From: Lutibacter sp. | GTDB lineage: Bacteria > Bacteroidota > Bacteroidia > Flavobacteriales > Flavobacteriaceae | Assembly: GCF_021647475.1 (NCBI RefSeq) | Contig: NZ_JAKIUR010000001.1 | Location: forward strand, 80,763-144,762 | Direction of reading: 5' to 3' | Length of the DNA stretch: 64,000 nt | Shown: positions 12,025 through 46,963 of the stretch, piece after piece | Position numbering within the stretch: the first letter of the stretch is position 1 | Layout of the letters: the number at the start of each line of letters is the position of its first letter | Position numbers and translations under genes: made by a program | Notes under the pieces: generated by a model | What the model was told of the DNA's origin: nothing | Database searches by the model: none | Seen by the model: only the letters and a program-made list of their open reading frames with translations

Positions 12025-12540
12025 ATGCCAATAAAAAATAAAAATGAGTTCTGTAATGAAAAAAAGTTTACTTCTTTTTTTTTAGAGCAATCTACATTAC
12101 TTTTTAACTATATATTTTATAAATGTGGCAATACGGATTTAGCAGATGATATTGTACAAGAGGCTTTTATTAAAATTTGGAACAATTGCTCAAAAATAAT
12201 TCCGAATAAAGCAAAATCATTTTTATTTACTATTGCAACTAATTTATTTTTAAATGAATATGCAAAAACATCCGTTATTATTAATTATAAAAATACCATT
12301 AAAAAAGATTACACTAATGAGTCTCCTGAATTTATTTTGGAAGAAAAAGAATTTGAGGTGAAATTACAAAAAGCTATCTCAAATTTAACTGAAACACAAC
12401 GCGTTGCTTTTTTAATGCACAGAATAGATGGGAAAAAATATAGAGAAATTGCGGAATTATTAGGAATTTCTATAAAAGCAGTTGAAAAAAGAATTCATAA
12501 TGCTTTATTAAGTTTAAGAAAAGAAATTGATGAAATTTAA
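12025..12540 (+). CDS. ECF RNA polymerase sigma factor
   Basis: Region 2 ADDIVQEAFIKIW; region 4 KYREIAELLGISIKAVEKRI. Confidence 0.92.
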   Translation: MPIKNKNEFCNEKKFTSFFLEQSTLLFNYIFYKCGNTDLADDIVQEAFIKIWNNCSKIIPNKAKSFLFTIATNLFLNEYAKTSVIINYKNTIKKDYTNESPEFILEEKEFEVKLQKAISNLTETQRVAFLMHRIDGKKYREIAELLGISIKAVEKRIHNALLSLRKEIDEI

Positions 12541-12545
12541 AAAAA

Positions 12546-12571
12546 GTAGGGTAAATGCTTTTTTAATTGTT
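12546..12571 (+). promoter_or_regulatory. Putative ECF-sigma promoter GTAGGGTA-N14-TGTT (fecR-like/TonB receptor operon)
   Basis: Motif lies directly after the sigma stop codon, 20 nt before the ATG at 12592. Confidence 0.7.
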
Positions 12572-12591
12572 TATAGGTTATATTTAAGAAT

Positions 12592-13494
12592 ATGAAAGAA
12601 AACTACTTTTTAGCCAAATGGTTAGCTAATGAAATTACAGACGAAGAGCTTAAAAAAAATATAAGCACGGAAGAGTTTATCACTTATAAAAAAATTAAAA
12701 CGACTTCTGAAAACTTAATTGCACCTAAATTTAATGCAGAAAATATATTAAGCACCATACAAGAAAATAAACGAAAACAAAAGGTTTTAAAACTGCGTTT
12801 TAATTATTTCTATAAAATAGCAGCAATGCTAGCGATTATTATTACTTCATTTTATTTTATTTCTTCTAAAAACACGGTTTACACTACTAAATATGCTGAA
12901 AAAACTAGTTTTGAATTACCAGATGAATCTAAAGTTGATTTAAATGCTGATTCTAAAATTACGTTTAAAGAAAAAAATTGGAATACTCATAGAAATTTAA
13001 AATTAAAAGGAGAAGCTTTTTTTAGCGTAAAAAAAGGATCAAAATTTACAGTAAATACTAAATTAGGTTCCGTAAGCGTTTTAGGTACTAAGTTTAATGT
13101 AATTGCAAGAGACGATTATTTTCAAGTTACGTGTTACAGAGGTTTGGTTAGTGTTAGCTATAAAAACAAAACTGTAAAAGTTCCAGCAGGAACTTCATTT
13201 AAAACAGCTAAAAATTATACCGCACAAACTTTTGAAATTAATGATAAATTACCTTCTTGGATCCAAGATTTTAGTTCATTTAAAAGTATGCCGTATCATT
13301 TTGTAATTGAAGAATTACAACGACAATACAAAATAAAAATAGTGTATAATCATAAATATTCAAAGACATTATTTACGGGTAATTTTACACATACCAACTT
13401 AAAAACAGCATTAAAATCAATTACAGTACCTTTAAATTTAACTTTTAAAACTATTGGTGAGCATAAGGTTTCTTTTATTGAAAATAAAAATTAA
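12592..13494 (+). CDS. FecR-family anti-sigma factor
   Basis: Single TM; LPDESKVDLNADS, LKGEAFFSVKKG and VSVLGTKFNV FecR motifs. Confidence 0.92.
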   Translation: MKENYFLAKWLANEITDEELKKNISTEEFITYKKIKTTSENLIAPKFNAENILSTIQENKRKQKVLKLRFNYFYKIAAMLAIIITSFYFISSKNTVYTTKYAEKTSFELPDESKVDLNADSKITFKEKNWNTHRNLKLKGEAFFSVKKGSKFTVNTKLGSVSVLGTKFNVIARDDYFQVTCYRGLVSVSYKNKTVKVPAGTSFKTAKNYTAQTFEINDKLPSWIQDFSSFKSMPYHFVIEELQRQYKIKIVYNHKYSKTLFTGNFTHTNLKTALKSITVPLNLTFKTIGEHKVSFIENKN

Positions 13495-16036
13495 CAAATC
13501 GTTATTTTTATTATTTTTAGGTTGTTTTCTAGTTACTAATTTATTGTTTTCTCAAAACTTATTAGAAAAAGAAACACAGCCTTTTTCTATATTGCTTAAA
13601 AATGCTGAAAATCAATTTCAAATTAAATTTTCATATGTAGATAAAGATATTAAAACCATTACTATTTTATCTTATGATAAAAGTTTAACCTTAACCAAGG
13701 TAATTCAATATTTTAAGAACAATACTCCGCTAAATTTTACTATTTTAAACGATAAAAATATATTAATTAGTAAGCCCATTTTAAAAAACTCTATTTGCGG
13801 TTACTTAATAGATGTTAATACTAAAAAACAAATAGAAGGAGCTCATATTAGTATTTTAAACACTAATATTCACGTAATTTCAAGTGTTAACGGTTATTTT
13901 TTTATTGAAAATGTAGCTGAAAATTCGGTATTAGAAATAAGACATATTTCTTATCCAGCTATTTTTTTAAATGCTAATGATTTTTTAATCCAAAAAAAAT
14001 GCCTTGCTGTTTCGCTAACTCAAAAAATACAACAACTACCTGAAATTATAATAAGTAACTTTTTAACTTCAGGAATTTCCCTAAAAACCGATAATTCTTT
14101 TCATATAAATTTACCAGAATCAGGAATTTTACCCGGCTTAATTGAGCCTGATGTTTTACAAAAAATAAAAGTTATTCCTGGTGTTAGTAGTGTTAATGAA
14201 ACGGTTTCTAACATAAATATTAGAGGCGGAACAACCGATGAGAATTTGTTACTTTGGGATGGAATTAAAATGTACCATTCCGGTCATTTTTTTGGACTAA
14301 TCTCAACTTTTAATCCTTATTTAACTAAAAGCGTAACGGTTATTAAAAACGGAACAAGTGCACAGTATAATGACGGAGTTTCAGGTACCATTAAAATTGA
14401 ATCTTTAGATAAAGTAAATAAAACTATTTTTGCAGGTGCAGGATTTAATCTACTTAGTGCTGATGCTTATGCTTATATTCCTATTTCAAAAAAAATTGGA
14501 TTTCAATTTTCAGGAAGGCGATCAATTACAGATTGGCTAAAAACACCAACGTTTACACAATATTTTAATAAAGCATTTCAAGATTCAAAAATTACATCAA
14601 ATACCTCTTCAGAAGAAAATGTAACCCAAAATTCAAACTTTAACTTTTTTGATTATAGTTTTAAGTTTTTGTATAATTTTAATAAAAATCACCATATTAG
14701 AATTAACTTTTTAAGGATAGAAAATAGTTTAGATTATAAAGAATTGTTATCTAATGAAACAAACTTCAGCTCAAAAACAAGCAACCTAGAACAAGAAAAT
14801 ATGGTATTTGGATTTCAACTAAAAAGCAAGTGGAGTTCTAAATTTAATACTTTTTTACAGGCGTATTATACTAAATACACAAATAAAGCTTCCAATTTTT
14901 CATTATTAACTGACCAGCGATTATTACAAAATAACATTGTGCTAGAAACGGGTATTAAACTTAACACTAATTATCAAATTAATAAAAACCTATCGGTTTT
15001 ATCGGGTTACCATTTTTATGAATTAGGAGTTACAAATTCTGATGATGTAAATTTACCTTTATTTATTAGAACCATTAAAGATGTAATTAGAAACCACTCT
15101 TTATATTCACAAGTAAAATTTCATTCAAATAACTATAAAACCTTTATTAACGGAGGAATACGTTTAAATTATATAAATAAATTTAAGTTGTTTTTAGCTG
15201 AACCTAGAGTTCAAATTTTGCAAAAGTTAACTCCTCAATTATCCTTAAAACTAGGAGGAGAGTTTAAAAGCCAAAACATTACTCAGGTAGTAGATTTACA
15301 GGAAGATTTTTTAGGCGTTGCAAAAAGCAGGTGGACTTTAGCTGATAACAACACTGTTCCAATAATTAAAAGTAAACAAGCTTCTTTTGGGTTTAATTAT
15401 AAAGCAAACCATTTGTTTATTGATTTGGAAGGTTTTATTAAAAAAGCAACAGGCATTACTTCATCTAACCAAGGATTTCAAAATCAATTTCAATTTGTGA
15501 AAACAAATGGAAATTACAATGTTAAAGGAATTGAATTTTTAATTAATAAAAAAATAAATAATAGTAGTTTGTGGTTAAGTTATACTTTTAATGATAATCA
15601 ATATACCTTCAAAAATTTAACTCCAAATTCATTTCCAAACAATTTAGATATTAGACATAATATTTCATTTGGTAGTACTTATACCTATAAAAAATTAAAT
15701 ATTGCATTTGGAGTTCATTGGCGAACAGGAAAACCATATACCGTTCCAACAGAAACTAATCCTGTTATAATTAATGGAATTTCAAATTCCATTAATTATA
15801 GTTTACCTAATAATAAAAATTTAAAAAACTATCTTCGAGCCGATTTTTCAAGCACATATTCTTTTAAATTCAATAATAAAGTTAATGGATTTGTAGGGGC
15901 TTCTTTGCTAAATATTTTTAATACTAAAAATATACTTAATACTTATTATAGAGCAAATTCTAACGCTACTATTACTCAAGTAAATAACAGTTCTATTGGA
16001 ATTACTCCAAATTTTACTTTTAGAATTAGCATGTAA
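13454..16036 (+). CDS. TonB-dependent receptor with N-terminal signalling extension and carboxypeptidase-like domain
   Basis: N-terminal STN-like region, plug NIRGGTTDENLLLWDGI..YHSGH, TonB C-terminal YLRADFS...NIFN. The true start may be the TTG at ~13481. Confidence 0.88.
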   Translation: MVSIRFLLLKIKINKSLFLLFLGCFLVTNLLFSQNLLEKETQPFSILLKNAENQFQIKFSYVDKDIKTITILSYDKSLTLTKVIQYFKNNTPLNFTILNDKNILISKPILKNSICGYLIDVNTKKQIEGAHISILNTNIHVISSVNGYFFIENVAENSVLEIRHISYPAIFLNANDFLIQKKCLAVSLTQKIQQLPEIIISNFLTSGISLKTDNSFHINLPESGILPGLIEPDVLQKIKVIPGVSSVNETVSNINIRGGTTDENLLLWDGIKMYHSGHFFGLISTFNPYLTKSVTVIKNGTSAQYNDGVSGTIKIESLDKVNKTIFAGAGFNLLSADAYAYIPISKKIGFQFSGRRSITDWLKTPTFTQYFNKAFQDSKITSNTSSEENVTQNSNFNFFDYSFKFLYNFNKNHHIRINFLRIENSLDYKELLSNETNFSSKTSNLEQENMVFGFQLKSKWSSKFNTFLQAYYTKYTNKASNFSLLTDQRLLQNNIVLETGIKLNTNYQINKNLSVLSGYHFYELGVTNSDDVNLPLFIRTIKDVIRNHSLYSQVKFHSNNYKTFINGGIRLNYINKFKLFLAEPRVQILQKLTPQLSLKLGGEFKSQNITQVVDLQEDFLGVAKSRWTLADNNTVPIIKSKQASFGFNYKANHLFIDLEGFIKKATGITSSNQGFQNQFQFVKTNGNYNVKGIEFLINKKINNSSLWLSYTFNDNQYTFKNLTPNSFPNNLDIRHNISFGSTYTYKKLNIAFGVHWRTGKPYTVPTETNPVIINGISNSINYSLPNNKNLKNYLRADFSSTYSFKFNNKVNGFVGASLLNIFNTKNILNTYYRANSNATITQVNNSSIGITPNFTFRISM

Positions 16037-33737: not shown

Positions 33738-34190
33738 TTAAAACTTAAATACTATTTTTTTTAAGTACAATCTATGTTTTTTATAATCAATAATTGCTTT
33801 ACCCTTTTCTAAAACATCGGCACCAATAATGCCATCAATAGCTTTTGCCTTATGCTCAGTTAAGGCTGTATTTACGTGAGTTAAATCAAGCAAAACCAAA
33901 GTCTGATTTTTGAATTTCCAATTTTGAATTTCGAGTTTATTTTTTGATGAAATTTTAGTTTCCATTCCTGTGGCACCAGCTCCAGCAGCTTTAGTTTCAG
34001 AATCTTCAACAATTAGTTTAAACTTTTCAGCTAAATCATTAGCTATACAAGAATTTGAAGCACCTGTATCTAAAATAAACCGACCTAAAACACCATTAAT
34101 AGCAACTTTTAGCTCAAAATGATTGGTATTTATTTTTTTTAGTTTTATTTGTATGTATCGTTTTCTTTTTAAAATTCTGCTTAGCCTCAT
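33738..34190 (-). CDS. Retropepsin-like (clan AA) aspartic protease
   Basis: FILDTGAS catalytic motif and DGIIGADVL. Confidence 0.9.
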   Translation of the reverse strand: MRLSRILKRKRYIQIKLKKINTNHFELKVAINGVLGRFILDTGASNSCIANDLAEKFKLIVEDSETKAAGAGATGMETKISSKNKLEIQNWKFKNQTLVLLDLTHVNTALTEHKAKAIDGIIGADVLEKGKAIIDYKKHRLYLKKIVFKF

Positions 34191-34200
34191 ACTTCAAAAT

Positions 34201-36897
34201 TTAAGAATTCAAAACTAGTCTTTTTACTAACAAATAACTAGCAAATAAAACAAATACTAAAATAACTATCCATCCTAAATAATCATTAGCATTAGTTATT
34301 AAATTAGATTCACCAATATACACAAAACTTGCCCAATAGTAAGGCGATTTTTTACTAGCTGAAATAGTTTTATCATTTAAGTAATCTAGTTTAGAATTGT
34401 GTAATGCAATGGCTTTATTGGCTGTTTTATTATATTCTTTATAAAACCCTGCCATTAATTTTTCGGTAGATTTATCGTTTACTTTCCAAAGTGAAACTAG
34501 TAAATTTTTAACTCCTGCATACGAAAATCCACGTGCTAAACTCATAGCTCCTTCTCCTTTTCTTAACGTTCCTAATCCTGTTTCACAGGCACTTAACACC
34601 AGTAAATCTGTTTGTAAATTATATCCGTAAATTTCGGGTAAATATAAAGTTTTATCATAAAATTCAATAGCTGGTGGCGTGTAGTAATTACCTGCAGTTG
34701 CATGTGTTGATAAATGAATTATTGAATATTTTTTGGCTTGCTTTTCAAATGCTTCTTTTGAAGCGTTCGAATTAAATAAAAACTGACCAGCTTCATAGTT
34801 TTTTATACTTTTAGCTTCCTGTATTGTATAACTAAGTTCAGATAAATTTCGGTGATTATTTTTAAAAACAGGAAAAAATCCTATAAAATTATTTTTATTA
34901 TTTTGAATAATTGTATTCTCATGCATTAAAATTGAAGCAGAAAATGCGTAACTAATTACAGTTTTATGAAGTAAATATGGTAATTTTTCAAAATTGAATA
35001 TTGAAGTTTTTTTAGTAATTAGTGCATCAAACGGAATAAATGAGAATAAGTCATCGGGTATTATAATTGTATTTTTATGGAGCTTAGTGTTAAATAGATT
35101 TTTGTATAATTTAAAACCTAATTCGGTATATTTTTGAACATTATTTTGTAAAGCAGTTCCTCTAGCATCTGCAAATAAATTTATAAATTCCGAAATTTGT
35201 TCATTAACCTTTTTTGTTTTAATAATTTTATTAATGCTAATTGGATTACTTTTTGAAATTGAAAAAACATAAATATTGCTTTTCCCATCAAAAAATTCAA
35301 CTAACAATTCATTATTTTTTAATAGTTTTTTTCTAACTTTTTTTACGGTTATTAAACTATCTTTTTGAAGTAGTATTTGTGGATATTTTAATTTAATTTG
35401 TTGTTTTAATAGCTGTATTTTATTCGAAATTTTATTTCGTTGTTTTGTTAAATTTACTAATAATGCTACGGAAGCTTTTTCTTCTTTTAAGGTTTCAATT
35501 ATTATACTTTTATTTAATTGAGCACTTTTAAAAGCTAATTTTTTTTCAAGAATAAACAAACTGTCATTTTTAAAGGGTGACTTTAAAAAAGTAGCTTCTT
35601 TTGCTTCTAACAACACTAAAGATTTAGATTGCTCTGCATACTGAAAACCTCTTTCAAGCCAAACATTATTACTAGTTTGCTGATATAATTTAAAGCACAA
35701 ATCTATACAACTTTCACTTCTGTTTCTATTTCCTTGCTGCTGTATTAATTTTGAATTTTGACTTAAATATGATGTTCTCAATTTATCTTCAACATTAAAG
35801 GCTAAATCAAAATTTTTTAATGCATTTTTATAATTATTTGTTTGAATAAGTGCATTTGCTCTTCCATCTAAAGATTCTTTTAAGGTGTTTTCTGGATAAA
35901 AATATAAGGTTAATGGATTTTCAAATACAGTTTTAGGATTGTATTTTGGCAACAATGTTTGTAAAGATTTTTGATAAAACCTTAATGCTTTTTCAAACTG
36001 CTTTTGTATTGTATAAACCTCAGCCTTTCGGTTGTAAATTTTAGCAACTTCTCTGTCATTTTTTCCAAATGCAATTTTAGCGGTTTTTAACGCTTTGTCA
36101 AATTCAATTAAAGCTTTGTCAAACTCTTTTTGTGTTATAAAACAATTTCCTAATGTAATGGCATTTCTTGTTGAAACTGAAAGGTTTCTTTTAATATTCA
36201 ATTTATTTGACAATAAACTGTTTTCTTTAGCTTTTTCAACTTCGTTTAAAAAGAAATAATCAATTGCTAAATCGGAATATAACCTAGATTTAATTGGTTT
36301 TTTAACACTTAAATCTAAGGCTAAATTTAAGTAGTTTATGGCTGATTTATAAGCTCCTTTTGTTCTATAAACTATCGCTAAATTAGAATATCCTGCTATT
36401 ATTTGAGCAGTGTTATTTTCCTTTTGAGCTTTTTCTATAGTAATTTTTAAGATATCTTCAGCTCTGTCAACATCGCCTAATCTTGTATAATTATTTGCCA
36501 AAGGTTTTAGGCAAAATTCAATAATATTATAATTTAGTATTCTTTTACTTTTGTATATGGCATATGCTTTTTCATATTGAATAATAGATTGATTTATAAA
36601 GCCAAATTGTTTTAAATAAAAAGCATAATTAATATATAAATAAAGTTGAGCCGTAAATTCTTTTTTATGGATAGGTTTACGCCATAATTTAGAGGTTATT
36701 TTTTTAAAAATAGATAATTTTTCTACTGAAGGATTTTTAGCAAACTCGTCTAAATACACATAAATATATTCTGAGTAATTATCTTGTTGCCTTAATGATT
36801 TAACTTTATCCTCAAAATTAATATCTGATTTTTGAGCAACCGCTAGTGCTGAAAAAAATATAAAAATAACTACATTAATTTTAGTTAACATAAGCAT
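34201..36897 (-). CDS. TPR + CHAT (caspase-like cysteine protease) protein with signal peptide and C-terminal TM anchor
   Basis: TPR array; CHAT motifs IIPDDLFSFIPFDAL, IHLSTHA (His), VLSACETG (Cys), LWKVND, PYYWASF; C-terminal TM. Confidence 0.9.
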   Translation of the reverse strand: MLMLTKINVVIFIFFSALAVAQKSDINFEDKVKSLRQQDNYSEYIYVYLDEFAKNPSVEKLSIFKKITSKLWRKPIHKKEFTAQLYLYINYAFYLKQFGFINQSIIQYEKAYAIYKSKRILNYNIIEFCLKPLANNYTRLGDVDRAEDILKITIEKAQKENNTAQIIAGYSNLAIVYRTKGAYKSAINYLNLALDLSVKKPIKSRLYSDLAIDYFFLNEVEKAKENSLLSNKLNIKRNLSVSTRNAITLGNCFITQKEFDKALIEFDKALKTAKIAFGKNDREVAKIYNRKAEVYTIQKQFEKALRFYQKSLQTLLPKYNPKTVFENPLTLYFYPENTLKESLDGRANALIQTNNYKNALKNFDLAFNVEDKLRTSYLSQNSKLIQQQGNRNRSESCIDLCFKLYQQTSNNVWLERGFQYAEQSKSLVLLEAKEATFLKSPFKNDSLFILEKKLAFKSAQLNKSIIIETLKEEKASVALLVNLTKQRNKISNKIQLLKQQIKLKYPQILLQKDSLITVKKVRKKLLKNNELLVEFFDGKSNIYVFSISKSNPISINKIIKTKKVNEQISEFINLFADARGTALQNNVQKYTELGFKLYKNLFNTKLHKNTIIIPDDLFSFIPFDALITKKTSIFNFEKLPYLLHKTVISYAFSASILMHENTIIQNNKNNFIGFFPVFKNNHRNLSELSYTIQEAKSIKNYEAGQFLFNSNASKEAFEKQAKKYSIIHLSTHATAGNYYTPPAIEFYDKTLYLPEIYGYNLQTDLLVLSACETGLGTLRKGEGAMSLARGFSYAGVKNLLVSLWKVNDKSTEKLMAGFYKEYNKTANKAIALHNSKLDYLNDKTISASKKSPYYWASFVYIGESNLITNANDYLGWIVILVFVLFASYLLVKRLVLNS

Positions 36898-36900
36898 CTT

Positions 36901-38889
36901 TTATATTTTCCAAATGGCATAAAAATGAAGTTGGGAATGAGGTTCATTAAAATTATAGATATAACGTATGCCAATGCTTGGCCCAATTCTAGCGGCTCCA
37001 ATAGTAATATCACCAAAAATACCGTATTTAATATCTTTAAATGAAGATTTATTTTCAAATGTTCTGGTTTCATTGAGTGTATCAATTGGATCTCCTACAG
37101 TATTTTTATAATAGGTGAAATAACTCGAATTTATAGTATTGTTTGATTTATTAGAAATATCAAATGAAAGTTGAGGTCCAACTCCCAAACCAAAAATGCC
37201 ATTCAAATTATAACGAAAAGAAACAGGAACAACATCAATATTTAATTCGGTAATTTTTGAAGTTATATCATCAAACCGTATGGCACTATCAATTATACCT
37301 GCCTGAGTGTCAATTGGCCCAATAATTTCACTGGCATTTTTAAAATCTGCAAATTTATGAGTAGAAATCATTAACTCTGCTTGTAAATATTTTTTATATG
37401 ATTTATAGGGAGAAATAGTGGCTCCAACAAAATAACTTTTAGAGTTTTTTACATTTAAATAACTATTATAACCCGATTTTACTCCAATCGAAATTCCTGG
37501 AGAAAACCGAGACGTTGACGTATTTGTAATTATGGGTTCGTTTTTATCAAAAATTATTTCGGTTTTACTTTTTGATTTCTTTTTATGAAAATCTTTTCCA
37601 AATTTTAAAGAATATTTTACAAATCCTTTGGTAGAATCTTTATCGTGCACTCCTTTTTGGGCTGTTCCTGGAAGATAGATGTTTTTAAATTGAAATGAAA
37701 TTTTATCTTTACTAATAATTGTATCTAAACAACTATATCGGACTTCTGTATCTGGACAAATTGGACATTTAGGATACATATCGAGTACCTTTAACGTTGA
37801 TTTATCTAACATTTCAGGAATATCAACATTTAATTTAATTAATCTGGCAGGTCCTTCGCCATTATTTTGGAATTGAACTTTGTATTTTAATCGTTTAAAA
37901 CGAACCAATCTATAATTTAACCGAGTATCATAAACTGCCATTTTATTTGGATCGTGTGAGGTTACAATTTCCATTTCTTTAGTAATTACTTTATGTGAAT
38001 CGCCACTGCGTTCAGGGACATAAATACTTCTGATTGAAATTACGGCACTGGTATCTTTTAGCATTTCGGGTGTAGTTTTAAAACTAAAAAACATATTGCG
38101 TGTTTCATTGGCATCTAAATTATCAACATCATAAATTTTAACATCTTGATAATATGCTTCTGCATCCTTTAATGTTTGTGGAAAATTTTGCTTTAAAGTA
38201 TCATTTCCAATTAAGTTCTTATCAATAAAAGTAGTAATACCTGTGCTTTTTATAAATTCATCTTTTGAAATATATTTATTGTTATCTGCAACTGTTTTTG
38301 AAAAAACTTCACTTTCATTATGGTACAATCTAACAGCTACTAAATCAAAATTTTTGGCTTTATATTTTTTTTCATTAAAAAATAGATAAATTTTTCCATT
38401 AGTTATATATTCTTTTGAATTGCCATAACTTAAAACTAATTGTATTTCTTCATCTGGTTTTGGATCTCTATTTATTTGCAATCTAAAACCATTATGTGCT
38501 GCTAATAAATAATGATTTTCATTTTCTGAAATAGCAAACTTTTCTTCATTTACAGTTACCTCTTTTGGACGTGTAGTAGGTGGTTTACCATCATCATAAT
38601 TATTAGTTACTGAAAGTTGTACTTTGTAATTTCCTTTATTTTTATAAACATGCTTTGGTTCCTTTTCAAAACTATAATTTCCATCACCAAACTCCCAATA
38701 ATAGGTGTAAAATGCTTTAGGTGCTCCAGCAATTTGATTTAACTGAGGTGTTTGCGGATTAAAAAAAACTTTATTCTCATCCACCGTATAATTAATAGTT
38801 GCAGACCTATTAATTGTATCATTTTCAATTTCTTGTGCGTAAAAACACGTTTGAAATAATAAAAAAAAGAGTATAAAATAATTTTTCAT
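36901..38889 (-). CDS. PKD-domain + Ig-like (DUF7619-type) + C-terminal beta-barrel exported protein
   Basis: PKD YYWEFGDG...PKHVY..KGNYKVQL; SHDPN...YKVQFQNNGEGPA Ig module; alternating beta-strand C-terminus. Confidence 0.7.
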   Translation of the reverse strand: MKNYFILFFLLFQTCFYAQEIENDTINRSATINYTVDENKVFFNPQTPQLNQIAGAPKAFYTYYWEFGDGNYSFEKEPKHVYKNKGNYKVQLSVTNNYDDGKPPTTRPKEVTVNEEKFAISENENHYLLAAHNGFRLQINRDPKPDEEIQLVLSYGNSKEYITNGKIYLFFNEKKYKAKNFDLVAVRLYHNESEVFSKTVADNNKYISKDEFIKSTGITTFIDKNLIGNDTLKQNFPQTLKDAEAYYQDVKIYDVDNLDANETRNMFFSFKTTPEMLKDTSAVISIRSIYVPERSGDSHKVITKEMEIVTSHDPNKMAVYDTRLNYRLVRFKRLKYKVQFQNNGEGPARLIKLNVDIPEMLDKSTLKVLDMYPKCPICPDTEVRYSCLDTIISKDKISFQFKNIYLPGTAQKGVHDKDSTKGFVKYSLKFGKDFHKKKSKSKTEIIFDKNEPIITNTSTSRFSPGISIGVKSGYNSYLNVKNSKSYFVGATISPYKSYKKYLQAELMISTHKFADFKNASEIIGPIDTQAGIIDSAIRFDDITSKITELNIDVVPVSFRYNLNGIFGLGVGPQLSFDISNKSNNTINSSYFTYYKNTVGDPIDTLNETRTFENKSSFKDIKYGIFGDITIGAARIGPSIGIRYIYNFNEPHSQLHFYAIWKI

Positions 38890-38947
38890 AGTTAGTAGAT
38901 TTAAACAAATATAAAGAAAGCATTTTAATTAATTTTTTTAATGAGAT

Positions 38948-38978
38948 AATCTCCCTTGCAATTAAGCCAAGGGAGATT
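38948..38978 (-). terminator. Hairpin terminator after the lipoprotein gene
   Basis: AATCTCCCTTG / CAAGGGAGATT 11-bp inverted repeat. Confidence 0.7.
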
Positions 38979-39007
38979 TTACTTATTTACTACAATTTGT
39001 GGGGATA

Positions 39008-40033
39008 CTATGGCAGTCCGTTAATTAAAGCTTCTAAAGCTGGTTGTGTTATTGGAGTTAAACTTGAAATAACTTCTATATGACCATCAACAATTGTTGT
39101 TCCTTGTATTGCATAATTTAGTTGTCCGTTTATTTCTGCAACCATAATAATGTGAACTTGTTGTCCTATTGGAATCATTCCATAATGTTCAGTAAACATT
39201 TCAAGTGCTGTATCCCAAACATCCATTCTTGCTAAAGCTGTTGGCTCTCCATCGTATGATAAATACACTGCACAATTCTCTTGGTTAAATTCATTTGGCA
39301 CATCAATATAAAGTTGAGTTTTAGGTCCTGTAAAGTTGTACCATCTGTCAAGATTAGTCCAACCAAAATCACCAATATCATAGTTGTAAGTTGCAAATTC
39401 GCCATTTGCACCTCCTCCATCTTTAATTTGAGCATTATCATTTTCCCCATCATTATCCTCATCAGTTTCAATCCAATTTCCATTTGTATCATCATCTCCT
39501 CTAAAAATTTGCATTCCGCCATCTAAATCTGCAAAATCAATAGGTCTGCTTTCCACTGAAGCCATTTCTAATAATTCTAAATTATTTGTGTCTTGTTCGG
39601 CATTTATAAAAAATTCTCCTGCTGATTTTAATACTTCTTTGTCTCCGTTAGCTCTCATTCCTAAGGTTGACTTATTTTTCAAAAGCATGGAAGCTTTATC
39701 ATAAATCTCAATTAATTTTACGGTTACATTTCCTGTTACTGGTGTTCCATTTAATCCGAAAGAATTTGGCTGAAATGTTACTTTAGTTCCTTGTGTTCCT
39801 GTAATAACACCACCTGTTGAGGCATCAATAGTAAATTCTTGTACTGCATTGGCTCTGTTGTCATCAAACCTTTGATTAAGTGCTGCTCCATCTGGCAACG
39901 GTGGCTGTATATCTTCTTTTGGATTACAGCTAGTAACAAATACTAATAATGATATGCCTACCACATTTTTTAAAATACTGCTCACAACTTTCCTTTTATT
40001 AAAGTTTGTGAAATTTTGTTTTTTGTTTTTCAT
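39008..40033 (-). CDS. Hypothetical lipoprotein
   Basis: Lipobox FVTS-C; divergent from the ECF sigma gene. Confidence 0.75.
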   Translation of the reverse strand: MKNKKQNFTNFNKRKVVSSILKNVVGISLLVFVTSCNPKEDIQPPLPDGAALNQRFDDNRANAVQEFTIDASTGGVITGTQGTKVTFQPNSFGLNGTPVTGNVTVKLIEIYDKASMLLKNKSTLGMRANGDKEVLKSAGEFFINAEQDTNNLELLEMASVESRPIDFADLDGGMQIFRGDDDTNGNWIETDEDNDGENDNAQIKDGGGANGEFATYNYDIGDFGWTNLDRWYNFTGPKTQLYIDVPNEFNQENCAVYLSYDGEPTALARMDVWDTALEMFTEHYGMIPIGQQVHIIMVAEINGQLNYAIQGTTIVDGHIEVISSLTPITQPALEALINGLP

Positions 40034-40149
40034 AATTATTAAAATTTAATTGTTTTTAATTTCGTTTTACATTTACATATCAACTAAATTTTATTTTGTT
40101 ACCTCTTTTTCTTTAAAAAAAATTAAATTAGCTATCTGTAGCTAAAAAA

Positions 40150-40725
40150 ATGAAACAAAAACCGCATAAAGATCACTTATATATTGAGGCCTTATTAAAA
40201 AACGACAGTAGGGTGCTTTCTAAAATTTATGAGAAGTATTCTTATAAAATTGTTTCTTATGTTAGAAAAAACAGTGGAAATTCAGATGATGCACAAGATA
40301 TTATTCAAGAAGTGTTGGTTACCATATATCATCAAGCAAAAGAGAAAAACTTTATACTTACTTGTCCGTTTGATGCTTATTTTTATTTGTTATGTAAACG
40401 TAAATGGTTAAATGAATTAAAAAAAAGAGGGAATACTAGGGTAACAATTTTAGATGATGACATATCTATTACTGAAGAGCAAGAACAACAAGTTGAAGAA
40501 ACTGAAATTTTTGAACTGCAACATCAGCTTTTTGAATTAAAATTTAAAGAATTAGGTAAAAAATGTCAAGAATTATTAAAAACATCCTTTAAAATTAAAT
40601 CCATGGAAAAAGTTGCAAAAATTTTAGGCGTTACTTATGGATATGCTCGCAAAAAGAAATCAGAATGTATGAAAAAATTAACCCTACTTGTGAAAAATTC
40701 GAGAGAATATCATCAGTTAAAATAG
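40150..40725 (+). CDS. ECF sigma-70 family factor
   Basis: Region 2 DAQDIIQEVLVTIY; region 4 MEKVAKILGVTYGYARKKK. Confidence 0.88.
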   Translation: MKQKPHKDHLYIEALLKNDSRVLSKIYEKYSYKIVSYVRKNSGNSDDAQDIIQEVLVTIYHQAKEKNFILTCPFDAYFYLLCKRKWLNELKKRGNTRVTILDDDISITEEQEQQVEETEIFELQHQLFELKFKELGKKCQELLKTSFKIKSMEKVAKILGVTYGYARKKKSECMKKLTLLVKNSREYHQLK

Positions 40726-40735
40726 TATTATTAAA

Positions 40736-41473
40736 ATGAAAGAAGATAGATACATATTATTTGAAAATTACTTAACGAATAAACTTTCTAATACCGAACT
40801 TCAATCTTTTGAAAAAAAATTAGAAAAGGATACTGATTTTAAACAAGAATTTGAAATTTATAAAAATTTAAATACTTCATTAAAATCTAAGTTTGAAAAT
40901 GAAGAATCTGAAATAGCACTTAAAAAAACCTTAAATAATTTAGGATCTCAGTTTATTAAACACAACAAATCAAAAAAACAAAAAGTAATTTCATTATTTA
41001 ATTATAAAAGTTTAATGATAGCTGCTAGTATTGCATTATTGGTTAGTTTATTTATATTTAAAAACGGAAAGCCTGTTTATAGTGATTTTTCCAATCATAA
41101 CGCTTTAGAAATAGTTGTTAGAGGTGAAAATAATGGCACTGTTGTTAAAGCTGAAAACGCATTCAATTCAAAAAATTATAAAGAAGCATTACAACAATTA
41201 ACCATTTTATCTAATACCTATCCAAACGATACTGAAATTAAATTATACCAAGGGATTTCTAACCTTGAATTAGGGAATTATACAAATGCAGAAACTATTT
41301 TTAATAAAATTAGTGAAGGAAATTCAGCTTTTGCAACTACAGCAACTTGGTATAAAGCATTAAATTATTTAAAACAAAAAGAGTTTAAAAAGTGTAAAGA
41401 AGTTTTAAAAACGATTCCTAAAAGTGCTGATAAATTTGGACAAGCTAAAAAATTATTGAATAAATTAAAGTAA
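40736..41473 (+). CDS. TM-TPR protein, putative anti-sigma factor
   Basis: N-terminal YL.N.LS..E...FE..L..D..F anti-sigma-like segment, one TM, C-terminal TPRs. Confidence 0.7.
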   Translation: MKEDRYILFENYLTNKLSNTELQSFEKKLEKDTDFKQEFEIYKNLNTSLKSKFENEESEIALKKTLNNLGSQFIKHNKSKKQKVISLFNYKSLMIAASIALLVSLFIFKNGKPVYSDFSNHNALEIVVRGENNGTVVKAENAFNSKNYKEALQQLTILSNTYPNDTEIKLYQGISNLELGNYTNAETIFNKISEGNSAFATTATWYKALNYLKQKEFKKCKEVLKTIPKSADKFGQAKKLLNKLK

Positions 41474-41484
41474 AACACTAAATT

Positions 41485-42210
41485 CTAATTGCTATTTTTC
41501 TTTAAATAATAGGGTAACAATTTATTTTTTCCGTGCTCAAATCGTGTTTGGCAATTATCAATTTTACCTTCATATTTTAATTCATTTGGCACCTCTAAGT
41601 TAAAAATACCTTTCCCTTTTGCCATTTTTTCTAATCTGTGAATAGCTTTAAAAGTTAGTTTATGGTACAACGGTTGAAGGATTTTACATTGCTCAATTTC
41701 GCCATAAGTTAAATCCCAGAGTTTCGCTTTTTCTCCCTTTATAATTTCTTTAGAAAAGTAAACCTCCTTTAGCAATGGAAATGCAAATTCAAATACTTTT
41801 TGTGAACCATTGTTCGCAAATAATACAATTTCTTTATTTCTAACAATAAAAAAACGAATTAAAAAATTATCCATTTTTGATAATTGATTGGCGGCAATAG
41901 ATGCAATTCCAATGCTTTTTATTTCATGACCTTTCTTTTTTCTTTCAGCATCAAACCAATAATAAAAATCTCTAATTTGACTAATAGTTCTATATTTTAA
42001 ATTTCCATTTGTTACAGATATATTAAAAACATTGGCTTTATTCCAAACTTCAGTTTGTTTTTTTCGGTCTTTCTTTAACCAGCAACCATTTATTAAAATA
42101 GGATTCCCAGTTTCAATTTGATAAGCTTTTAGCGTCTTCCATTCTTGAGCATTGGAATACTTAAAAACAAGCAACATAAGTACTATTATTATATATTTTA
42201 TTTTCATCAA
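41485..42210 (-). CDS. Hypothetical exported protein
   Basis: Signal peptide ending SNA-Q; no recognisable domain. Confidence 0.65.
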   Translation of the reverse strand: MMKIKYIIIVLMLLVFKYSNAQEWKTLKAYQIETGNPILINGCWLKKDRKKQTEVWNKANVFNISVTNGNLKYRTISQIRDFYYWFDAERKKKGHEIKSIGIASIAANQLSKMDNFLIRFFIVRNKEIVLFANNGSQKVFEFAFPLLKEVYFSKEIIKGEKAKLWDLTYGEIEQCKILQPLYHKLTFKAIHRLEKMAKGKGIFNLEVPNELKYEGKIDNCQTRFEHGKNKLLPYYLKKNSN

Positions 42211-43582: not shown

Positions 43583-46500
43583 ATGAAGAAAGGATTTTTT
43601 TTAGTCTTATTTTTTTTGACGGTTGTTTTGCACGCTCAAAGTCCAGCAACCAAATTAAAATCTTTCTTGGTAAAAAATGATACCATTAAAATTGATTCGG
43701 TAAGTATCAGCTCTTTTGATTTTAAAGTTTTTAAAAATGATTCCTTAATTAATCCTTCAGAATATTCAATTGATTTTTCAAAAGCACAACTAATTTTTAA
43801 TAATAGGGCTCAAAATAAATTGGATTCTATTAAAATTCAATACAAACCTTATCCCAAATTTTTAACCAAGAAATACCAACTTTTTGATAAAAAATTAATT
43901 GTTACTAACAACACTTCTCAAAATTTATATAGCTTAACCACAAATAAGTCTAAAAAAATCAACAAACCATTTGAAGGTTTAAATGCCGTTGGAAATATCA
44001 CACGAGGATTAACCATTGGAAATAATCAAAATGGAGTTGTTAATTCAAGTTTAGATTTGCAAATTGCTGGAAAAATTTCAGATAAAGTTACCTTAAAAGG
44101 CTCAATAATTGACACTAATATTCCTATTCAGGAAAACGGAAATACTTATAAATTAAATGAATTTGATAGAGTTTTTATCGAGCTATTTAGTAAAAACTGG
44201 AAAATTACTGCAGGTGATATTTATTTGAATAACAGCGAAACCAAATATTTAAATTTCAATAAAAAAGTTTCAGGATTAGCCGTAAATGCAATCATAAAAA
44301 ATAAACATTCCGAAATAAACATTGAAACTTCAGGAGCAGTGGTTCGAGGAAAATATAAAAAAGTTGAATTTGTGGGTGAAGAAGGGAATCAAGGCCCATA
44401 TAAACTTAATGACTTAAACAATAATTCCTATATTTTAATTTTATCTGGAACCGAAAATATTTATATTAACGGACAGCTTTTAAAACGTGGAGAAAATAAC
44501 GATTACACTATTGATTATAACAATGCCGAACTAACTTTTAACACTACTTTTCCTATTACTGCCAATATGAGAATATCAGCAGAATTTCAATTTAACGATC
44601 GCGTTTTCACTCGATTTATCACTTATAATAACATTAAATTTAAGAGTGAAAAATTGGTGGTAAGTAGTTATTTTTATAATGAAAATGATGTTAAAAATCA
44701 ACCTTTAGAACAAGATTTAACCGATGCTCAAAAACAAATTTTAGCCAATGCCGGAAATGATTTAACCAAAATGGCAAGTCCTTCTGCTTATATTGACACG
44801 TATTCTGATAATAAAATTTTATATAAAAAAACACCTTTAGGCACATCTGAAATTTTTGAATATTCCACCAATGAAAATGATATTTTGTATCATGTTTCTT
44901 TTTCTTTTGTTGGTGCAAATTTGGGAAATTATAAATTAAAGGAAGTTATTGCCATTGGTAAAGTTTATGAATATATTGGTGCAAATTTGGGAAATTATAA
45001 TCCAATTATAAAACTAACTGCTCCAAACAAATTACAAGTTGCCGTTTTTAAAGCAAATTACCAGCCTTCTGTTAAAACTTCAATTCAGGCTGAAGCCGCT
45101 TTTAGTATAAATGATGCCAATTTATTTTCAACTATTGATGATGAAAATAATAACGGATTTGCTACTCAATTTAATTGGAACCAGATAATCTATTCTAAAA
45201 AATGGGAGTTAAAAAGCCAACTGGGTTTAGATTATATTGATGCACATTTTAAGAGTATTCAACGTATTCAAAATATTGAATTTAATAGAGATTGGAATAT
45301 TGTGAATTTAACAGGAAAGCAGCAATTAATTACCACAGGATTACAATTAAATAATCAACAAAATAGTAGCATTACCTATAAATTTGAAAACCTACTACTA
45401 GGTAATTCATTTACAGGAAATAAACATCATTTGTTTGGAAATATTACTCAAAAGAACTTCGCTGTTAATTTTGATGGAAGCATTTTAGAGAACGCTTCAG
45501 AAATCAGAAAAGGAACTTTTTCAAGATATCATTTAACCGCGACTTATACTTTAGGAAAAAGCTGGTTTGGGACACAATTTTCTGGTGAAAACAATGAACA
45601 AACATCAGTATTAACCCAATTAAAAGAAAATAACAGTCATAAATTTAATGAATATGAAGGCTTTTTTGGAATAGGAGATTCTACCAAAATATTTACTCAA
45701 ATAGGAGCAAAATTTAGAGTTACTGATAGTATTCAAAATAATAAATTTGAACGAGTTAATAATTCCAAAACATACTATTTAAAATCGAATTTTATAAAAT
45801 CTAAAACTGCAAATTTATCGACTTATATAAATTATAGAACGGTAAAAAATACTAATTTTAAAGATGAAGAATCACTTAACTCAAAGTTGGTGTATCAACA
45901 ACAATTATTTCATCAATTTTTAAATTTTAGTACTGTTTATCAAACACTTTCTGGCACCTTACCTCAACAAGATTATAGTTATTTAAAAACAGAACCCGGA
46001 CAAGGTTATTACACTTGGATTGATTATAACAACAACGGTATTAAAGAGTTAAATGAATTTGAAATTGCACAATTTCCTGACCAAGCAGAATATTTACGAA
46101 TTATTTTACCTACCATAAATTATATTGCAACACATCAAAATAAATTTACGCAAACTATTAGGATAAACGCCCAGCAGTGGAGTTCAAAAAAAGGATTTAA
46201 AAAAACACTTTCTCATTTTAATAATCAGACCTATATTTTGGTGGATAACAAACAGTTAAAACAACCTAAAAAATTCAATTTAAACCCATTTGACATAAGC
46301 AATCCTAATGTGTTGGCTTTAAATTATCATTTTACCAATAGTATTTATTTTAATCGAGGAAAAAAACACTTTACCACCAGTTATAGTTATCAAAAATCAA
46401 AAAATGTTAGCACTACTACCATTGATAATTTAAGCAATAATTTACAAATCCAACAGTTAACCTTTGAACATAAAGTGGGGAAATTTTGGCTATTTTATAT

Positions 46501-46963
46501 TAGTGGAAATCAAAGTAAAAATACAACAAACTCTCTTAATTATAGTAATCGGAATTTTAAGTTAAAAAACTATTCCTTTGCTCCAAAATTATCTTATTAT
46601 TACAATCGAAACGTTTATTTTTCAATGTTTTATGAATATAAAAACAAAGAAAATTTAATTCAAAATTTAGAAGCTTTACAATTGAATAAATTTGGATTTG
46701 AATTTAACAGTGCCAACAATACAAAAAATTCATTAAAAATAACCTTGAATTTGTTTAACAATAAATTTAAGGGAAATGCAAACTCACCTGTTGGATATCA
46801 AATGCTAGAAGGTTTTCAGGTAGGGAAAAATTATACTTGGAGCTTTCTATTCCATAGAAAAATAAATTCATATTTACATTTAAATATTAACTATTTGGGA
46901 AGAAAAAGTGAAACATCAAACACCATTCATACAGGATCAATACAGTTAAAAGCTATTTTTTAA
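43583..46963 (+). CDS. Large conserved Flavobacteriaceae outer-membrane/exported protein of unknown function
   Basis: Signal peptide, long amphipathic beta-strand region, C-terminal Phe (LKAIF). Confidence 0.7.
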   Translation: MKKGFFLVLFFLTVVLHAQSPATKLKSFLVKNDTIKIDSVSISSFDFKVFKNDSLINPSEYSIDFSKAQLIFNNRAQNKLDSIKIQYKPYPKFLTKKYQLFDKKLIVTNNTSQNLYSLTTNKSKKINKPFEGLNAVGNITRGLTIGNNQNGVVNSSLDLQIAGKISDKVTLKGSIIDTNIPIQENGNTYKLNEFDRVFIELFSKNWKITAGDIYLNNSETKYLNFNKKVSGLAVNAIIKNKHSEINIETSGAVVRGKYKKVEFVGEEGNQGPYKLNDLNNNSYILILSGTENIYINGQLLKRGENNDYTIDYNNAELTFNTTFPITANMRISAEFQFNDRVFTRFITYNNIKFKSEKLVVSSYFYNENDVKNQPLEQDLTDAQKQILANAGNDLTKMASPSAYIDTYSDNKILYKKTPLGTSEIFEYSTNENDILYHVSFSFVGANLGNYKLKEVIAIGKVYEYIGANLGNYNPIIKLTAPNKLQVAVFKANYQPSVKTSIQAEAAFSINDANLFSTIDDENNNGFATQFNWNQIIYSKKWELKSQLGLDYIDAHFKSIQRIQNIEFNRDWNIVNLTGKQQLITTGLQLNNQQNSSITYKFENLLLGNSFTGNKHHLFGNITQKNFAVNFDGSILENASEIRKGTFSRYHLTATYTLGKSWFGTQFSGENNEQTSVLTQLKENNSHKFNEYEGFFGIGDSTKIFTQIGAKFRVTDSIQNNKFERVNNSKTYYLKSNFIKSKTANLSTYINYRTVKNTNFKDEESLNSKLVYQQQLFHQFLNFSTVYQTLSGTLPQQDYSYLKTEPGQGYYTWIDYNNNGIKELNEFEIAQFPDQAEYLRIILPTINYIATHQNKFTQTIRINAQQWSSKKGFKKTLSHFNNQTYILVDNKQLKQPKKFNLNPFDISNPNVLALNYHFTNSIYFNRGKKHFTTSYSYQKSKNVSTTTIDNLSNNLQIQQLTFEHKVGKFWLFYISGNQSKNTTNSLNYSNRNFKLKNYSFAPKLSYYYNRNVYFSMFYEYKNKENLIQNLEALQLNKFGFEFNSANNTKNSLKITLNLFNNKFKGNANSPVGYQMLEGFQVGKNYTWSFLFHRKINSYLHLNINYLGRKSETSNTIHTGSIQLKAIF

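Follow-up and report, generated by a model that had tools for sequence, protein, structure and literature searches.

A conserved Bacteroidota module encoding an ECF sigma factor, an anti-sigma-like TM-TPR protein and a predicted periplasmic TPR-CHAT protease

Might an exported caspase-like protease set free a sigma factor by cutting a membrane-bound inhibitor that is encoded in a gene of its own? This question is raised by positions 33738–41473 of a stretch of Lutibacter DNA (contig NZ_JAKIUR010000001.1)—hereafter the window, by which the whole analysed stretch of 64 kb is meant. The locus encodes a sigma factor of the extracytoplasmic function (ECF) type, a protein with one transmembrane (TM) segment and a TPR domain (the TM-TPR protein), a TPR-CHAT protease, an outer-membrane PKD/Ig protein, a lipoprotein, and a retropepsin-like aspartic protease. 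The module that emerges is real, widespread, and uncharacterised, and its appeal lies mainly in the placement of protease and presumed substrate in separate genes. Comparison of related loci shows or strongly supports a co-inherited unit of the ECF sigma factor, its TM-TPR partner, a periplasmic CHAT protein with an intact dyad, the outer-membrane PKD/Ig protein and, usually, the lipoprotein. It is very probable that these genes form one functional module controlled by the sigma factor. The fuller interpretation goes further: the genes would be a complete signalling unit for the Bacteroidota envelope, organised as a split version of the DdvA–DdvS system and with CHAT acting as the site-1 protease. 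This we put slightly below an even chance.

The window has a GC content of 27%, and its nearest relatives are Lutibacter (Flavobacteriaceae) from hydrothermal-vent metagenomes. Four closely packed genes on the minus strand—for the lipoprotein, the PKD protein, CHAT, and the aspartic protease, with gaps of 118, 3, and 10 bp in that order—face a divergent sigma gene across 116 bp, and the TM-TPR gene follows the sigma gene after 10 bp. A sequence-only reading of this DNA had described these genes and the gaps of 3 and 10 bp beside CHAT, along with the His/Cys dyad, signal peptide, and C-terminal anchor of the CHAT protein, and all of them were confirmed. The features are as follows.

33738–34190, minus strand: retropepsin-like aspartic protease, 150 aa; PF13650 (Asp_protease_2) 8e-14, DTGAS motif, without signal peptide
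34201–36897, minus strand: TPR-CHAT caspase-like protease, 898 aa; PF12770 1.9e-45 and TPR_12 2e-22
36901–38889, minus strand: PKD/Ig/beta-barrel outer-membrane protein, 662 aa; PKD_4, DUF7619 1.2e-17, DUF7849 7e-61
39008–40033, minus strand: lipoprotein, 341 aa; lipobox Cys36
40076–40103, minus strand: promoter-like motif of ECF type (GGTAAC-N16-GATATG), with the lipoprotein ATG 70 nt downstream
40124–40131, plus strand: candidate housekeeping-sigma -7 box TAAATTAG for the sigma/anti-sigma operon; pattern TAnnTT[ACT]G
40150–40725, plus strand: ECF (group 4) sigma factor, 191 aa; TIGR02937 61.9 bits (cut-off 42.9) and Sigma70_r2 1.6e-7
40440–40467, plus strand: promoter-like motif copy within the sigma gene, in the sigma2–sigma4 linker; sense strand, toward the anti-sigma gene
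40736–41473, plus strand: anti-sigma-like TM-TPR protein, 245 aa; TPR_19, position and topology
41120–41125, plus strand: R129-G130 of the TM-TPR protein, the invariant basic-Gly of the orthologue alignment

Co-conservation of these genes had been set beforehand as a test, and it bears the unit out. Neighbourhoods were inspected for CHAT homologues at 28–44% identity and for 80 metagenomic loci fetched with the CHAT alignment, and the loci—cited below by number—were scored by tblastn and by hidden Markov models (HMMs) built from the module proteins. This gave 19 non-redundant loci with a full-length CHAT orthologue, or 20 module lineages with Chitinophaga niastensis; the full-length orthologues examined span 25–65% identity and come from Flavobacteriaceae, Pedobacter, and Chitinophaga. 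The PKD–DUF7619–DUF7849 gene accompanies CHAT in all 19 loci and lies directly upstream of it in 18 (19 of 20 counting C. niastensis). The rearranged locus, L003, carries the sigma, TM-TPR, and CHAT genes consecutively, with the PKD gene 2 kb off on the opposite strand. The sigma/TM-TPR pair, sometimes rearranged, is kept in 16 of the 17 lineages that have enough flanking sequence, the window excluded. C. niastensis (L092) bears the full five-gene module, and a profile search with divergent PKD proteins led to Puia, Flavitalea, and Chitinophaga species. The flanks vary by lineage: some flavobacterial loci share the 2-oxoglutarate dehydrogenase and TatD neighbours of the window, which L003, L005, L009, and others do not. 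Hence, the association is more than inherited synteny.

How far does the link between CHAT and the sigma factor reach beyond the PKD gene? The latter was found in none of 65 other TPR-CHAT loci. A sigma-family gene lies beside PKD-less CHAT in 4 of 22 loci with 2 kb on both flanks and in 8 of 45 with at least one such flank, usually accompanied by a protein resembling the anti-sigma domain–TM–TPR type. Four of these sigma factors (L021, L026, L028, L056) reach 160–177 bits on the module sigma HMM and sit beside longer CHAT paralogues; further sigma-linked loci with such TM-TPR-like proteins are L027, L036, and L079. Because PKD-less CHAT loci also adjoin a related sigma/TM-TPR pair, the triad of sigma factor, anti-sigma-like protein, and TPR-CHAT is, judged from gene neighbourhoods, the conserved core, to which PKD barrel and lipoprotein were added in one large Bacteroidota subfamily. 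As an observation aside, L021 (644–8049) encodes a sigma factor, an anti-sigma-like protein, and two consecutive TPR-CHAT proteins of ~1000 aa on a single strand, and L011 (Aquimarina) carries two tandem CHAT genes of 1090 aa each and no sigma gene.

The CHAT domain itself scores 156 bits against a cut-off of 24 (PF12770), above the curated threshold, and H728 and H732 (HLSTHA) as well as C771 (SACETG) are invariant in a 42-homologue alignment that extends down to 26% identity. An AlphaFold model built on this alignment (pLDDT 88, pTM 0.84) is placed by Foldseek closest to Csx29 (8eey_B, 2e-12), with DdvA (8rw5 and 8rot, ~2e-10) and separase (2e-10) next; a PDB sequence search with the same protein returned TPR proteins only, so that the kinship to Csx29, DdvA, and separase emerged by fold search. 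Domain, dyad, TPR superhelix, and modelled fold together assign the protein to the TPR-CHAT proteases, its proteolytic activity being predicted. Its architecture comprises a signal peptide, a TPR superhelix of ~500 aa, the CHAT domain (H732/C771), and a C-terminal anchor. A signal-peptide-like segment at the N-terminus and, at the C-terminus, a hydrophobic helix with Lys/Arg behind it recur in 15 of 15 CHAT orthologues examined, as read from hydropathy analysis and the positive-inside rule rather than from a dedicated predictor. As these two segments are conserved, it is strongly supported that the TPR-CHAT body is periplasmic and anchored in the inner membrane—the export and anchoring proposed for the window protein thus extend to all 15.

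For the sigma factor, the TIGR02937 match to the sigma70-ECF model spans residues 23–177, while all curated subgroup and equivalog models remained under their cut-offs. Bearing sigma2 and sigma4 regions only and matching the ECF superfamily model, the protein is, by domain content, an ECF (group 4) sigma factor, and orthologues with 44–87% identity hold the same position in 16 other lineages. Its partner begins with a helical N-domain of ~80 aa, in which the pattern YLxxELSxxExxxFExxLxxDxxL recurs, and continues with a single hydrophobic segment (~residues 84–110) and a TPR domain of ~130 aa. We call it anti-sigma-like on its context—the position directly after the sigma gene—and its topology. 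The single TM segment and the periplasmic TPR domain of the sequence-only reading stand, and of its anti-sigma-like N-terminus a hint is left: of 15 members, 4 match zf-HC2 weakly, at E = 0.006 for the best, while E = 0.89 is obtained for RslA (3hug_B). Cys is absent from the N-domain and no His is conserved in it, so that zinc ligands are lacking. Some 20–30 residues beyond the TM helix follows a basic-Gly pair, which is an invariant R129-G in the orthologues and [R/K]-G in 6 of 7 distant triads. Separase and metacaspases cleave after basic residues, and CHAT has a candidate site for its cut in this juxtamembrane [R/K]-G.

What might the PKD protein contribute? It carries a signal peptide, a PKD domain, Ig-like domains (DUF7619), and a small C-terminal beta-barrel (DUF7849). 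Its AlphaFold model (pLDDT 70 overall) shows Ig-like domains and then long antiparallel strands at residues 466–661 with pLDDT 80–90, and Foldseek matches this barrel to the eight-stranded OmpX/Ail proteins with probability 1.0 and a TM-score (target) of 0.44–0.47. The C-termini read ...WKF or ...WRF in the flavobacterial orthologues and L009, WKI in Pedobacter and the window, and ...KL or ...RL in the remaining Chitinophaga-type proteins. By its modelled fold, the protein is a small outer-membrane barrel of the OmpX/Ail-like kind. In the chain, the PKD/Ig part comes before the small barrel, which has its ends on the periplasmic side; most likely, this part therefore extends into the periplasm, autotransporter-like export being conceivable, and an external cue is probably not what the PKD protein senses. 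The family is diverse: a search of a representative library returned many giant PKD-repeat proteins among its matches, and ~70 of the 150 top representatives (50%-identity clusters) match most of the query in a single stretch at ~600–770 aa. DUF7619 is among the Ig-like domains predicted to bear intramolecular isopeptide bonds (PMC12617251). A candidate bond in the DUF7619 region (residues 313–459) was dismissed, as its Lys is not conserved between alignments and is Arg in the Chitinophagaceae clade; such a bond may not be conserved here.

The closeness of PKD and CHAT invites an explanation in which the anti-sigma-like protein is not the substrate at all. CHAT would cut the PKD/Ig protein or the lipoprotein, a fragment would serve as signal or effector, and the anti-sigma would respond indirectly or bind the fragment through its TPR domain. 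The two genes lie 3 bp apart here and side by side in nearly every locus—a closer tie than the one to the sigma gene—and, by the barrel topology, CHAT and the PKD domains would both be periplasmic. The AlphaFold model moreover contains long low-confidence linkers between the domains of the PKD protein, at residues 198–234 and 279–330. On the contrary, the PKD-less triads show a CHAT–sigma link independent of the PKD protein, and we consider cleavage of an operon partner improbable.

The lipoprotein family has an invariant lipobox Cys36 followed by acidic residues, and Pfam and PDB searches returned no relative. Acidic residues after the lipobox Cys are what we take to be the surface-export signal of Bacteroidota, and by this pattern the lipoprotein is probably surface-exposed. 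Homologues occur in most module loci, with two copies in L005, L008, and L014 and none in L009, L023, and L058. The aspartic protease, which had been noted for its distance of 10 bp from CHAT, turned out less central than this spacing suggested: beyond the window it is found in 6 of ~20 related loci (L007, L008, L013, L016, L018, L065), always abutting or overlapping the CHAT 3' end, and in the closest Lutibacter relatives it has decayed to fragments (L001, 12645–13001; L002, 12716–12805). From this distribution, it is an accessory and dispensable component.

Which known system does the module resemble? The sequence-only reading had taken Craspase as the nearest precedent, and a closer one exists. 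DdvA of Myxococcus xanthus is a transmembrane anti-sigma fused to a periplasmic TPR-CHAT, with the ECF sigma factor DdvS as its partner (PMC11506125, PMC6061681). It is proposed to be activated by self-cleavage in trans, with CHAT as the site-1 protease and subsequent cleavage by RseP; DdvA-like fusions are reported in Myxococcota and one Comamonas species only, and DdvA is the sole characterised TPR-CHAT anti-sigma (PMC11506125). Both systems co-encode an ECF sigma factor under control at the inner membrane with a periplasmic TPR-CHAT of the separase/craspase type bearing a His-Cys dyad, and both would follow the logic of a CHAT site-1 cut and RseP-type intramembrane cleavage. They differ in that the anti-sigma-like protein (TM and short TPR) and the TPR-CHAT (with C-terminal TM) are here two genes instead of one fusion, and in the N-domain, which lacks Cys/His ligands whereas that of the DdvA type binds zinc (CHCC). 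The module also adds the outer-membrane PKD-barrel and the lipoprotein, stands in no defence island, and belongs to another phylum, Bacteroidota. Hence, it looks like a split version of DdvA–DdvS with added outer-membrane partners.

Craspase (Cas7-11, Csx29, Csx30, and a sigma factor that is ECF-like; PMC10028731) shares the TPR-CHAT fold and, as an idea, the chain from a protease through a sigma inhibitor to a sigma factor. However, it is cytoplasmic, RNA-guided, and CRISPR-associated, whereas the module protease is exported and the presumed sigma inhibitor, a membrane protein, bears no relation to Csx30. No CRISPR array was found in the 64-kb window, no PADLOC cas match in the module, no cas Pfam family in the neighbourhoods, and no Csx30-like gene was seen.

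These two precedents also raise the possibility of an anti-phage defence module that works like DdvA–DdvS, by defence-island control, or like Craspase, as both are linked to defence (PMC11506125, PMC10028731). The aspartic protease adds a match to the PADLOC candidate defence protein PDC-M08B (2e-11), yet this gene is dispensable. The module lacks CBASS and other PADLOC matches as well as cas genes, its neighbours are housekeeping genes (2-oxoglutarate dehydrogenase, TatD) in conserved synteny, and its protease is periplasmic, unlike Csx29. Taken together, a defence function appears very improbable.

Two further comparisons concern the layout. With the FecA–FecR–FecI system and the regulated intramembrane proteolysis of RseA, the module shares the trans-envelope arrangement of an outer-membrane part, a single-pass anti-sigma, and an ECF sigma factor, and this sigma factor would likewise induce its own sensory genes and be released by proteolysis. 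It differs from the former in that Pfam finds no Plug, TonB-dependent-receptor, or FecR domain in the module, and from the latter in that the part of site-1 protease would fall to a caspase-like CHAT instead of DegS or Prc. In the group ECF54, CHAT, subtilase, and carboxypeptidase genes lie near the sigma gene, and the conserved CHAT has already been taken as a hint of proteolytic control (PMC8999054). That group, however, is actinobacterial and without an anti-sigma, whereas the module always has an anti-sigma-like partner and a periplasmic CHAT. No account of the Bacteroidota module was found in the searchable literature, nor one of DUF7849 or the lipoprotein family; the sigma group may already be catalogued, neighbours included, in the ECF classification's supplement, which lay outside this search.

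If the sigma factor controls the module, its promoters should be visible in the DNA between the divergent genes. Read toward the lipoprotein, PKD, and CHAT genes, there is a promoter-like motif GGGGTAACAA-N14-TTGATATA, with a -35-like GGTAAC, a spacer of 16–17 nt, and a -10-like GATATA; in the form GGTAACAA-N14-TTGATATA, it is conserved upstream of the lipoprotein and the PKD-CHAT genes. A classic ECF promoter of similar build is that of SigW, TGAAAC-N16-CGTATA. The strict pattern has 27 matches in 419 kb of module loci, all within the module, and one in 688 kb of other CHAT loci. Of the 27, 25 lie between the sigma and lipoprotein/PKD genes and point toward the latter; the two exceptions are a sense-strand copy in the L012 sigma gene and a copy in L023 (6549, minus strand) that points beyond the anti-sigma gene. 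The distance from motif to lipoprotein ATG is typically 70–71 nt. Copies are also found before second lipoprotein paralogues and before the PKD gene (L005, L012, L014, L023, L058), and Pedobacter and Chitinophaga retain the motif as well. The orientation is fixed by the copies between lipoprotein paralogues and before PKD, and it yields the canonical ECF -35 GGTAAC with its 16–17-nt spacer; the opposite orientation toward the sigma gene (TATATCAAC-N13-TTGTTACC) was rejected, as these copies precede a gene only in the orientation adopted. With an ECF-type motif upstream of the lipoprotein and PKD-CHAT genes, the sequence points to the lipoprotein/PKD-CHAT operon, with the aspartic protease gene where present, as the output of the sigma factor. 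This makes the divergent lipoprotein a plausible sigma target, as had been suggested, and recasts the role claimed for CHAT and PKD as inputs: with the motif before PKD or before the whole operon, both would be outputs, whether or not they are inputs too.

Two variations of this motif deserve mention. In L007 (6297–6590), L050 (2423–2700), L065, and L014, two to four tandem copies of the promoter-like unit lie between the sigma and lipoprotein genes, 70–104 nt apart (in L050, one pair is 154 nt apart), and the smaller spacing, 70–72 nt, is also the motif-to-ATG distance; these could be duplicated promoter-plus-leader units or small transcripts. The lipoprotein-less Chitinophagaceae-like loci carry an extra motif after the anti-sigma gene (L023, 6549, minus strand; L058, 6499, minus strand). 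The open reading frames (ORFs) downstream of it (L023, 5124–6533; L058, 5103–6419) encode two secreted proteins, an Ala/Ser-rich one of 150–180 aa and a barrel-looking one of 270–280 aa, which may be alternative regulon members.

How, then, is the sigma/TM-TPR operon itself transcribed? An ECF-type motif in the sigma gene's own direction was not found before it. In 13 of 16 lineages, the DNA ahead of the sigma ATG contains instead, at 12–37 nt, the pattern TAnnTT[ACT]G, which 6% of random 60-nt windows contain. The housekeeping -7 box of Bacteroidota has the consensus TAnnTTTG, from which this pattern is one base away; a generic sigma-70 promoter scan was uninformative in DNA of this GC content, with 63 matches against 56 expected. 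Within the sigma ORF, GGTAACAA is identical in 15 of 15 orthologues at the same position (L001–L065 and L092). This conservation includes synonymous sites: Val is encoded by GTA and Thr by ACA without exception, and the preceding codon varies in its amino acid and always ends in G—compared with a mean third-position majority fraction of 0.55 elsewhere in the ORF. An ATATCT-like element downstream is likewise conserved at synonymous sites, and the ...GTATCTATTACTG tail of the internal copy is found again in L007, in a copy that is non-coding. The internal copy is, hence, a candidate sigma-dependent promoter for the anti-sigma gene.

From these elements, a mechanism can be proposed. At rest, the N-domain of the TM-TPR protein would sequester the sigma factor at the membrane. 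An envelope cue, conveyed by the outer-membrane-tethered Ig/PKD protein and/or the TPR arrays, would activate CHAT, which as a dedicated site-1 protease would clip the anti-sigma in its juxtamembrane periplasmic linker—R129-G130 being the candidate site—after which a site-2 protease and cytoplasmic proteases would release the sigma factor. The latter might then transcribe the lipoprotein–PKD–CHAT operon as positive feedback and, from the motif within its own ORF, extra anti-sigma as negative feedback. Cleavage of the anti-sigma by CHAT is what we infer: the triad recurs without the other genes, L003 has CHAT in the sigma operon, and DdvA is a fusion of the two parts. As anti-sigma and TPR-CHAT form one polypeptide in DdvA, their split counterparts would also interact, by the Rosetta-stone argument.

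The same promoters fit equally well with an explanation in which CHAT is only an output. The sigma/TM-TPR pair would sense through its periplasmic TPR domain and be released by generic site-1 and site-2 proteases, and lipoprotein, PKD-barrel, and CHAT would be its regulon—an inducible envelope or surface apparatus whose CHAT would act on the lipoprotein, on the PKD protein, or on foreign proteins. The ECF-type motif precedes the lipoprotein and PKD-CHAT genes and not the sigma gene, and the ECF classification cautions that neighbours may be either regulators or targets (PMC7826278). A pure effector role, however, leaves the recurrence of TPR-CHAT specifically with this sigma group unexplained. 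CHAT lies in or beside the sigma/anti-sigma operon in L003 and the PKD-less triads, and in DdvA the anti-sigma and the TPR-CHAT are physically joined (PMC11506125). We regard a role as mere output as rather unlikely. Moreover, the output and input readings are compatible: in FecIR systems, too, the sigma factor induces its own sensor.

Several observations count against CHAT as the site-1 protease of this module. CHAT lies within the presumed regulon, and its association with the sigma factor is explicable by output alone. Pedobacter sp. SD-b (L010), the one lineage without the pair, retains lipoprotein, PKD, and CHAT genes and the promoter motif with no sigma gene within 10 kb, as expected for an output. 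The anti-sigma nature of the N-domain is only hinted at by its weak sequence matches. The R-G pair as cleavage site is speculative and could be a structural cap. Finally, CHAT-mediated cleavage is unproven even for DdvA (PMC11506125). The complete trans-envelope relay of Bacteroidota—set off by a perturbed envelope or a bound ligand, running from an outer-membrane Ig/PKD protein that spans the periplasm to inner-membrane CHAT, from there by a trans cut at Arg-Gly to the ECF sigma factor, and with both feedbacks—is thus offered tentatively and with clearly less than even confidence.

The module bears on a more general question. In DdvA, a single chain comprises both protease and substrate, and a site-1 cut by TPR-CHAT is a proposal (PMC11506125); with protease and presumed substrate in separate genes, this becomes testable, and the module, if read correctly, would put the DdvA hypothesis to the test in a split form supplied by nature. 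CHAT would then be the first site-1 protease of the caspase family for which action in trans on an anti-sigma is shown. On average, a Bacteroidota genome encodes more than 20 ECF sigma factors (PMC7826278), and the module—present in environmental and host-associated members of Flavobacteriaceae, Sphingobacteriaceae, and Chitinophagaceae—would define an unstudied ECF signalling route with predicted promoter and regulon. DUF7619, DUF7849, and the unannotated lipoprotein family gain a functional setting.

The remaining observations concern the surroundings of the module in the window. It is flanked by genes for secreted proteins of 241 aa (41485–42210, minus strand) and 1126 aa (43583–46963, plus strand), both without a Pfam match; tblastn with the former matched nothing in the compared related loci, and it is probably outside the module, and the latter was likewise without a match there. 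At 12025–16036 (plus strand) lies a conventional triad of ECF sigma factor, FecR anti-sigma, and TonB-dependent receptor, which serves as an internal contrast to the CHAT module. At 20232–23981 (minus strand), a thermolysin-like M4 metalloprotease of 1249 aa is encoded, with an FTP propeptide, four CUB domains (3.9e-81)—which are unusual among bacteria—and a C-terminal sorting domain for type IX secretion.

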